This document shows positions 15,001 through 18,000 of a DNA stretch of 64,000 nt, in pieces. The position numbers are program-made. This DNA comes from Chthoniobacteraceae bacterium. Its GTDB lineage: Bacteria; Verrucomicrobiota; Verrucomicrobiia; Chthoniobacterales; Chthoniobacteraceae. The DNA lies in NCBI GenBank assembly GCA_031409655.1, contig JANNXQ010000029.1, forward strand, positions 1 to 64,000, in the 5' to 3' direction. Positions within the stretch are counted from its first letter, which is position 1. Every line of letters starts with the position of its first letter.

Positions 15001-18000
15001 CCCGGTCGGACGGCGTGGCGAAAAGGGACGCGCCCGAGGAGTTCGCACAAAGCTCCTCCAATTCTACGGCACCGCCACGCGCAGGAAGAGCGGCGGGCCG
15101 GGCGCGACGATCGTGGTGCTCGTGGTGACATTGCCCGCGGAGGGCACGGTCTGGATGTGGGTGTAGGGTCCGCCGGGCGCGGGGGCGCTGAGGATGCGAT
15201 AGGTGAGCCCGGCCACGCTCTGCCACGTGAGCCCGTAGGTGGTCGCGCCGGGCTTCTGCACGGCGGTGATGCGCAGCGTGGAGTTCGGCGAGAGCGGGTT
15301 GGTGTGGGCGATGAATTCGCGCAGGTTGTCAAGGCCGTCGCCGTCGGTGTCGAGGGTCGCGTCGGCGACGTTCCGATTCAGCCCGTAGAAGAGCTCCCAG
15401 CCATCCGGGATGCCGTCGCCATCAGTATCGATGCCGCCGAGATACTGCGGCGTGCGCGTGCCGGAAGTACCGGTGCCGCTGATGAGGCTCCAATCGGCAA
15501 AGACCTCCGTGAGCGCATCGCCGGCCGGTCCGACGACGATGTAGCTCCACTCGAAGGCTCGCACGACCAAGGTGATCCGCTCCTGGATGGTGTTCGCGCC
15601 ATCCGCGGCGGTGAAGTTTTGCCGGATGAAAAAACACGTCGAGGCCTGGATGTCCCACAACTCGATTCGCTGCGGGGTGCGCAGCGCGACGACCATCTTC
15701 ACGGTCGCGATCGGGGTGGTCGCCGTCAGCGCGTCGAAAAACTTGGTGGTCGCCCGGTCCACGCCCTTCACGAGCGTGAACTCGCGAAACGCAGTGCGCT
15801 CGCTGCCCGCGGGCAGGACGATTTCACGCAACGCGCCGCTCTCAAAAGCCGAAACCGCGACCCAGCCGCTGTAGAGCGGTTCGGCCACACTGCCGGTGAG
15901 CGGCGAGGCGCTCTGCGGCGTCACTTCCAGGAAGACATCGAAAAGCGCCCACCCCCGCAGCGGGAGCAGCACCAGGCTGAGGAGGAGCGCGGCGCGCATG
16001 GCGGGCAGCGGCTACGGGGTGAAGGTGGCCGTGTTGGTGGCCGTGCTCCACGACCGCACCACCGAAGTGCCTTGGGTGCCATTGGGCAGGAGCGTCCAGT
16101 GGGTGTAGCGGAAGGCCACGTTCCTGAGCGTTACCTTTTCCTCCACGGAGTCGTCCCCGAGGGCAGCCGAGGACTTTTGCTCGACAAAGTAGGCGCGCCG
16201 CAGCTCGACGCGGAAGTAGGTGACGGGCCCCGCCACGCCCTGGGTGACAAATTCGAGGGTCACGTCCGCCACGCCCACGCCGCCATCGATGGGAGTGCCG
16301 GCCGCCAGCGTCCCGAAAATCTGCGGCGTGAGGCGATCGACATTCTTAGTTAGCACGACGCTGTCGAAAGTCGGCGGACTGACGGTGGTGCCGCCGCCGC
16401 CGGAGAAACTCACGACGACCGAAGTGCCGAAGCTGACGCTTTTCAGATTGGTCCAGCCGGTGCGTCCGGCATCGAGGGATGGTCCGGCCCAGACGCCGGT
16501 GCCATTGGCGAAGCGGGCGTAGATGGTGACCTGCGCGTGGGCGAGCGACGCGCCGAGGGTGAGGAGGAGCACCACGGCCAAGGCCGCGGCGCGGGGGAGT
16601 AGGCGAGGAGTTTTCATGGAGTGATGCGGTTTTTTGCAAACGTGAGTTTGGGCAGTGGGGAGTCAAGGTACGTTTTCCGATCCCATCCCTCGCCACCGCA
16701 CCGTTGCGCCCCAGAAAATCGGCTGCTACAACCGCCGCAACTTTCCCAAAAATGCCCCGCGACGCCTCCATCCACAAGATCCTCCTCATCGGCTCCGGCC
16801 CTATCGTCATCGGGCAGGGGTGCGAGTTTGACTACTCCGGCGTGCAGGCTTGCAAGGCGCTCAAGGAAGAGGGCTACACCGTCATCCTCGTGAACTCGAA
16901 TCCGGCGACGATCATGACCGACCCGGAGTTCGCGCACCGCACCTACATCGAGCCGATCACGCCCGAGGTGGTGGAGAAGATCATCATTGCCGAGAAGCCC
17001 GACGCGCTCCTGCCTACGCTCGGCGGACAGACGGCGCTGAATTGCGCGATGAAGCTTTTCGAGAGCGGCGTCCTCGAGCGGCATGGCGTGAAGATGATCG
17101 GCGCCAATGCGGCGGCGATCCACAAGGGCGAGGACCGGCTGGCCTTTAAGGAGGCGATGATCAAGATCGGTCTCGACATGCCGCTCTCCGGCGTCGCGCA
17201 CACCATCGAGGAAGCGCGCGTCATTGCTCAGGAGACCATCGGACGCTTCCCGCTCATCATCCGGCCCGCCTTCACGCTCGGCGGCACGGGCGGCGGCATC
17301 GCTTACAATCGCGAAGAGTTCGAGACGATCGTCGCGCGCGGGCTCGATCTCTCGCCGGTCAGCGAAGTGCTCGTCGAAGAGTCGCTGCTCGGCTGGAAGG
17401 AGTTCGAGATGGAGGTGATGCGCGACCGCGCGGACAATTGCGTGATCGTCTGCTCGATCGAAAACGTGGACCCGATGGGCGTCCACACCGGCGACTCGAT
17501 CACTGTCGCGCCGATCCAGACGCTCACCGATCGCGAGTTTCAGATGATGCGCGACGCGAGCTTTGCGATCATCCGCGAGATCGGCGTGGAGACGGGCGGG
17601 TCGAATATCCAGTTCGCCGTGAATCCGGACAACGGGCGGATGATCGTGATCGAGATGAACCCGCGCGTCTCGCGCAGTTCCGCGTTGGCATCGAAGGCCA
17701 CCGGTTTCCCCATCGCGAAGATCGCCGCGAAGCTGGCCGTCGGCTACACGCTCGACGAGGTACGCAACGACATCACCCGCGAGACCCCCGCGAGCTTCGA
17801 GCCGACGATCGACTACGTGGTGGTGAAATGCCCGCGCTTCACCTTCGAGAAATTCCCGCAAGCCGACCCGACGCTGACCACGCAGATGAAGAGCGTCGGC
17901 GAAGCGATGGCCATCGGGCGCACCTTCAAGGAGGCGCTGCAAAAGGCGCTGCGGAGTCTGGAGATAAAACGGTTTGGGTTGATCGGCGACGGCAAAGACG

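Follow-up and report, generated by a model that had tools for sequence, protein, structure and literature searches.

Two open reading frames on the minus strand, at 16012-16617 and 15064-15999 of the window (the whole stretch of 64,000 nucleotides that was analysed), lie 12 nt apart between carB, which is divergent, on one side and a GSDH-domain gene, which is convergent, on the other. Their features are as follows:

16012..16617, minus strand: gene 1, encoding P0002 (201 aa), a signal peptide and bare Hcp subunit (PF05638, E 5.1e-10; 4W64, E 1.1e-5)
16534..16617, minus strand: gene 1, predicted Sec/SPase I signal peptide, residues 1-28, ending in A-H-A and followed by Q29 (pattern test)
16015..16533, minus strand: gene 1, Hcp domain, residues 29-201, up to the protein end (Pfam, phmmer)
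16000..16011, minus strand: 12-nt intergenic spacer between genes 1 and 2 (coordinates)
15064..15999, minus strand: gene 2, encoding P0001 (311 aa), a signal peptide, Hcp domain, TSP3-like repeats and terminal beta domain (tailed subunit)
15946..15999, minus strand: gene 2, predicted Sec signal peptide, residues 1-18 (pattern test)
15460..15945, minus strand: gene 2, Hcp domain, residues 19-180 (Pfam; structural match of model range 19-178)
15289..15438, minus strand: gene 2, two TSP3-like Asp-rich repeats, residues ~188-237 (PF18884, E 2.2e-10, 2 stretches)
15067..15288, minus strand: gene 2, six-strand end domain of ~75 residues, candidate sorting or anchoring tag (genome-wide profile and model)

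Since the spacer measures 12 nt, the two genes probably form an operon; a promoter and terminator scan returned 0 promoters and 2 terminator-like sites against 1.2 expected. Both products pass the PF05638 (T6SS_HCP) cut-off of 23.5 bits, P0002 with 40.2 bits (E 5.1e-10) and P0001 with 28.3 bits (E 2.3e-6), and the model of P0001 matches Hcp structures, so that the two adjacent Hcp-fold genes of the preliminary description are indeed present. The cut-off of TIGR03344, the T6SS tube TssD subfamily (58.9 bits), is not reached by P0002 (22.4 bits), and P0001 gives no match to it. By sequence, residues 32-199 of P0002 match Hcp1 4W64 (phmmer E 1.1e-5), and this bare subunit conserves the Gly-rich loop and mature N-terminus of canonical Hcp together with the Ser of its W-S-W strand. 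The Hcp domains of genes 1 and 2 are 29% identical, with a profile match at E 2.9e-19, and the genes are a bare and a tailed subunit, not redundant copies. In the P0001 model (pLDDT 83.8, pTM 0.73), residues 19-178 superpose on Hcp 3EAA (Foldseek E 4.7e-13; VIA Z 20.8, rmsd 2.6, 155 aligned), and its structural matches share 10-19% sequence identity. The nearest named relatives bear the labels Chthoniobacteraceae and Opitutaceae, and the annotated source names seen for Hcp proteins here were all T6SS.

Elsewhere in the window, three tandem ORFs at 28243-32112 (plus strand) have similar C-termini (F.GG...V.F) and are presumably paralogous outer-membrane beta-barrels, while 32262-58622 holds what we take to be a urea uptake and breakdown run comprising an ABC transporter, urea carboxylase-like and glutamine-synthetase-like genes, and urease with its accessory genes. 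The GC content falls to 58-62% at 30-46 kb, and a tRNA-Val(CAC) is located at 8020-8094 (plus strand).

The tail of gene 2 contains two distinct parts. The TSP3-like repeats that had been reported behind one Hcp domain are those of gene 2 (TSP3_bac, E 2.2e-10); their Asp and Gly residues are invariant in the homologues and, judging from the family, they are expected to bind calcium. The earlier account of the architecture was accurate for the Hcp and TSP3 parts, and had missed the C-terminal domain that follows the repeats. This end domain has no match in Pfam or NCBIfam. A profile built iteratively from the final 75 residues of P0001 found 71 ORFs in the host genome, 58 of them with the last copy within 20 aa of the C-terminus, and in the Atlas the domain falls into unnamed clusters, mostly from Verrucomicrobiota (0.91-0.94). 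The tails of the partner genes found across the phylum (see below) were matched by the end-domain profile at E <=0.004 in 6 of 7 cases, 3 of these 6 being seed members, and at E 0.12 in the seventh. Several ORFs of 2000-2500 aa carry the domain near the N-terminus (contigs C124, C235, C127, C294 and C170 of G000, among others), hence it is not strictly terminal. The end domain, which is characteristic of exported Verrucomicrobiota proteins, appears to behave like a sorting or anchoring tag, a role for which it is a candidate. Its small size, beta-rich make-up and position at the end of many exported proteins recall the T9SS CTD and PEP-CTERM signals, but unlike these it matches no Pfam or NCBIfam model; the position after Hcp is occupied by PEP-CTERM in other taxa. 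No T9SS CTD model from Pfam or NCBIfam was matched, nor was SprA_N in the genome, for which the positive control was likewise silent. Two genes from the cassette, a leader-bearing protein at 11603-12568 (plus strand) has a PEP-CTERM-like end (E 0.0026, under the cut-off), which suggests that the host genome also uses exosortase-type sorting.

Leaders were recognised by a pattern (basic n-region, hydrophobic core, small-x-small) and not by a trained predictor. With this test, the N-terminal signal peptides already described for both genes were also found in 22 of 25 gene-1 homologues and 28 of 30 gene-2 homologues, against 0 of 12 Hcp controls from sheath-bearing genomes, and the failures were mostly truncated entries or fell short on charge count alone. 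The pattern was present in 10 of 13 single bare genes and 12 of 14 genes of the phylum pairs, and among 94 rows there was one Tat-like pattern and no lipobox. The predicted cleavage of gene 1 places its mature N-terminus at the canonical Hcp start. Since no ATG, GTG or TTG occurs at the predicted mature start of either gene, the conserved leaders cannot be bypassed by an inner start codon. From the sequence pattern, we infer that Sec takes both proteins across the inner membrane and that their leaders are cleaved. With five secretin matches in the genome, exit across the outer membrane via type II secretion is possible, without a link to the Hcp pair.

The host genome is a draft in 306 contigs, 94.9% complete and 5.3% contaminated. 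Its only two PF05638 matches are the pair genes, which the preliminary description had named as its only T6SS-related Pfam rows. No match was obtained in the genome for the sheath VipB/TssC (PF05943), VgrG (Phage_GPD, PF05954; the VgrG OB-fold model was left out), PAAR (PF05488) or the phage sheath (PF04984), and the positive control was matched in each case. Likewise, tblastn with 17 ORFs common to two family-mate T6SS clusters returned 0 matches; the queries included TssB/TssC-like ORFs and those which, from their order, length and sequence, we take to be baseplate TssE/F/G-like, and left out TssJLM, TssK and ClpV. The T4 gp19-type tube (PF06841) gave no match in the genome, with an equally silent positive control. 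The earlier statement that sheath, VgrG, PAAR and baseplate genes are absent is thus upheld by four Pfam searches and the 17-ORF tblastn in a genome of this completeness, and the Hcp locus fails all T6SS-defining features that were tested.

The distribution of the genes was followed through 101 genomes of the family, where kin are not independent and counts are accordingly given without a P value. Hcp was matched in 29 genomes and VipB in 13. The 11 genomes with leaderless Hcp all contain VipB, whereas of the 18 with leader-bearing Hcp one does (G016). Five of these 18 carry the bare and tailed pair (G000, G045, G058, G005 and G009), the copy in G005 being apparently frameshifted and that in G058 truncated where its contig stops. 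In the remaining 13 a leader-bearing bare gene stands alone and its 1.5 kb flanks contain no tailed gene, which implies that a tether is not always needed; 9 of the 11 single bare genes placed in a quick 119-row tree form their own clade. Among 401 genomes of the phylum there were at least 9 matches to the gene-1 profile. Seven of the eight other matches, in seven different families, consist of a leader plus bare Hcp directly followed by a leader, Hcp and tail, and VipB is missing from all seven carriers, whose genomes are 94-100% complete; the eighth match is a leaderless Hcp in a VipB-positive genome. Across family and phylum, VipB is absent from all 12 pair-bearing genomes and the bare-then-tailed gene order is conserved in all pairs. 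Beyond the genus, no gene is conserved next to the cassette, and no client gene recurs beside it across 11 loci. A scan of genome contigs gave two loci, of which L002 duplicates a family locus and was counted once. Close to the cassette of G463, repetitive translations at L050:13476-15611 suggest a CRISPR-like array. G501 lacks VipB and has its two cassette genes at the ends of two contigs; at L061 (contig C422) it also contains a leaderless orphan Hcp-like gene.

Leader and sheath are therefore nearly mutually exclusive in the family and among the phylum matches, which supports the proposal that Hcp has been domesticated as a Sec-exported, T6SS-independent protein. The preliminary description had counted the pair in 3 of 41 family genomes, none with VipB, and had called it rare. 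The absence of VipB stands, but the spread was understated: 18 of 101 family genomes bear an Hcp with a leader, 5 of them as the pair, and the same pair occurs in 7 other families. In metagenomes, a scan with the six-domain relative P0147 (see below) found mostly canonical Hcp, with 85 Hcp ORFs in 80 loci, 69 of which had T6SS core genes in the locus. L062 contains a partial multi-Hcp gene with no T6SS core gene in 12 kb, and L123, a contig of 2 kb with no T6SS core gene, contains two leader-bearing, near-canonical Hcp genes that are divergent (3-494, minus strand; 560-1117, plus strand). A signal peptide call at L069 proved to be a false positive.

A 3+3 complex model, which combines the two Hcp domains in triplicate, reached a score of 0.68, compared with 0.00 for the best control, and showed ring-type contacts, with at least 93% of contacts shared between runs and a partner pLDDT of at least 84. 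The mark for this score was attained by 116 of 157 solved complexes and 2 of 215 mismatched pairs; since solved Hcp rings exist and the 3+3 job is unlike the calibration set, the pass shows likeness and not binding, and the score may echo solved Hcp hexamers already known to the predictor. Judging by its contacts, the modelled ring would be mixed without strict alternation of the two subunits. By a crude NG86 estimate on GC-rich DNA, dN/dS was below 1 in 8 of 8 comparisons (0.39-0.66 for the Hcp domains and 0.18-0.32 for the tails), and the pair is under purifying selection. A single ancient duplication behind all bare and all tailed genes is not supported, as the bare genes did not come together as one group in any of 200 bootstrap trees; this tree was built from 42 chosen rows, includes three long rows and leaves deep branches unresolved. 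Since the tree does not resolve bare and tailed genes into two lineages and those of G417 are sisters (99/95), the cassette was re-made or homogenised at least once.

Relatives with several Hcp domains in one chain bear on the likely assembly. The gene-1 profile had 4068 matches in 1.84 billion representatives, and the best 150 of the 4068 yielded 146 new proteins. Whole Hcp domains numbered none in 4 of these, one in 96, two in 13, three in 3, four in 1, five in 2, six in 26 and seven in 1. Of the 46 multi-domain proteins, 26 thus have exactly six; summed scoring favours many repeats and so inflates the multi-domain share, yet seven or more should then gain over six. A hydrophobic leader is present in 68 of the 96 single-domain relatives. 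Six of the 13 two-domain relatives end in a PEP-CTERM pattern, 3 of them Pfam-confirmed, and the arrangement Hcp-Hcp-PEP-CTERM looks as if a bare gene had been fused to a tailed one. The 26 six-domain chains include 9 with a Planctomycete-type leader pattern and 6 with a serralysin/RTX-type end pattern. Many relatives (30 of the 146 scanned) have Ig, Calx, dockerin or Hint stalks, and cadherin plus Ig stalks also occur. A plasmid search with the six-domain P0153 gave, among the 15 matches listed, Ig-stalk matches only, none covering 80%. In the 119-row repeat tree, of which only a quick version was made, the repeats of P0140 and of P0153 group by protein and those of P0147 and P0137 fall among canonical Hcp, so that six domains appear to have been reached more than once. 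The model of P0147 has a pTM of 0.79 over 1048 residues as a single compact unit, indicating a fixed arrangement of its six domains. From this pTM, and not from coordinates, a closed ring may be predicted; no solved structure of a natural multi-Hcp chain was found. Other architectures include P0259, where a Hint domain comes after six Hcp domains, and P0154, where seven are joined to a hydrophobic helix at the N-terminus. P0156 and P0173 contain 7-8 short repeats of one Hcp piece only, with a period of ~50-60 aa, and possibly represent a different repeat fold.

The pair shares its fold, sequence family and predicted side-by-side ring contacts with T6SS Hcp/TssD (PF05638, TIGR03344; 4W64, 1Y12, 3EAA). 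In contrast to these, it has a predicted cleavable leader, a stand-alone two-gene unit and an exported-type tail, in a genome where no sheath, spike, PAAR or baseplate was found. Contractile injection systems of the eCIS/PVC type, R-pyocins and tail tubes have the tube-protein superfold in common with it (Z 8-11). In eCIS, tailocins and prophage tails, however, sheath and baseplate genes accompany the tube gene, whereas the pair has no PF04984 match in its genome and has carB and a GSDH-domain gene as neighbours; phage-tail-derived machines are not known to assemble their sheath or tail outside the cytoplasm.

Two described arrangements come closer. For Hcp-ET, the available part of PMC13323088 proposes one extended and five plain Hcp subunits per ring, and the combination of one plain and one extended Hcp is like that of the pair. 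Hcp-ET is nevertheless a cytoplasmic T6SS cargo with a toxin domain, while the extension in the pair and its relatives consists of TSP3 repeats, stalks of the Ig or cadherin type and a tag at the end, with leaders on both subunits of the pair; for gene 2, neither a C-terminal toxin domain (the tail being TSP3_bac plus a generic end domain) nor a cognate T6SS was found. According to the title of its PDB entry, the Hcp2-Hcp3 heterohexamer of Bacteroides fragilis (PDB 9VND) is a precedent for two Hcp paralogues in one ring, although it belongs to a working T6SS carrying the effector Bte1 and is not Sec-exported, whereas no T6SS was found with the pair. Howard et al. 2021 (PMC8262886), as far as its text was available, took Hcp genes with PEP-CTERM out of the tree, so such genes had been seen and set aside, and the available main text does not contain the term "signal peptide"; the available part of PMC3482391 mentions Hcp within the T6SS only. 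No description of exported or six-domain Hcp was found in open-licence PMC and bioRxiv main texts, and the supplementary tables of T6SS surveys could list such genes. Thus, the fold and protein family are known, and the system is not matched to a described kind in the open-licence literature.

Taken together, the evidence points to an undescribed ring-shaped structure of the cell envelope or surface, and we propose with moderate confidence that the best reading of the two-gene cassette is a Sec-exported, tethered Hcp hexamer. Sec would carry both proteins over the inner membrane and, to judge from the leader pattern, loss of the leaders would leave native-like Hcp N-termini. As the models and the six-domain relatives suggest, bare and tailed subunits would then form six-membered rings at a ratio that could range from 5:1 to 3:3, and the TSP3 repeats and end domain would direct the ring to its site or secure it there, as in other exported proteins of this phylum, probably at the surface. 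With no sheath, spike or baseplate there would be no injection, and the most likely role would be that of a structural ring or short tube serving as a scaffold or an adhesin with a central pore. Against the ring reading stand the single bare Hcp of 13 genomes, the broken-looking copy in G005 and the co-occurrence with VipB in G016, as well as the fairly high dN/dS of the Hcp domains relative to the tail.

It is also conceivable, but in our estimate unlikely, that the bare subunits stack head-to-tail into a long extracellular or periplasmic tube or filament, with the tailed subunit as anchor, nucleator or terminator in the manner of major and minor pilins. The major-then-minor gene order in all pairs, the canonical mature N-terminus and Gly-rich loop kept in the bare subunit, and the stacking of T6SS Hcp rings as tubes (available part of PMC13323088) would favour this. 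However, chains in which six domains are combined with large stalks speak for a single ring as the functional unit, and T6SS tube growth begins on VgrG within the sheath according to the same portion of that source, both of which are absent here. A periplasmic chaperone, in which the lumen of the exported ring would house or transport a client protein or small ligand and so reuse the effector binding of Hcp, seems quite improbable: the Hcp lumen does hold and stabilise cargo (PMC13323088, in the part available) and the W-S-W Ser is kept in P0002, but there is no conserved client-gene neighbour across the 11 loci, and the relatives bear surface-display tags (PEP-CTERM, RTX-type tail, Ig and cadherin stalks).

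The view that these are orphan or remnant genes of a T6SS unassembled in the draft or recently lost, with incidental leaders, can draw on the 306 contigs and 94.9% completeness of the genome, on VipB in 13 of 101 family genomes and on the degraded look of the G005 copy, but it is already largely refuted and very improbable given that all 12 pair-bearing genomes lack VipB, that the leaders are conserved and offer no inner start codon, that the pair is under purifying selection, and that a subunit exported by Sec cannot take part in a tube that is built in the cytoplasm. Equally hard to credit is a monomeric extracellular beta domain that has lost ring formation and acts as a spacer or binding module, since the distance of the pair proteins from canonical Hcp (below the TIGR03344 cut-off; 10-19% structural-match identity) is countered by the strong mode at six repeats, the pTM of P0147 and the ring-type contacts of the 3+3 model.

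Beyond the tethered hexamer proposed for this cassette, we regard as evenly balanced the broader proposition that the Hcp tube protein has been repeatedly domesticated in several phyla, with export by way of Sec, PEP-CTERM, RTX-type or Planctomycete-leader routes, as a module of general use for nanorings or nanotubes on the cell surface, made up of bare and tailed subunits encoded separately or of one chain of exactly six domains on an adhesin-like stalk. Hcp is customarily taken as a hallmark and read-out of the T6SS; if the proposition is true, many genes annotated as "T6SS Hcp" would encode proteins that do other work in the envelope or at the surface, and a component of phage tails would more than once have become a non-contractile exported structure. 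Natural single-chain hexamers would offer an asymmetric, addressable protein nanoring, and for the bacteria that carry these genes the finding would mean an unrecognised class of surface structure with a protein-lined pore.
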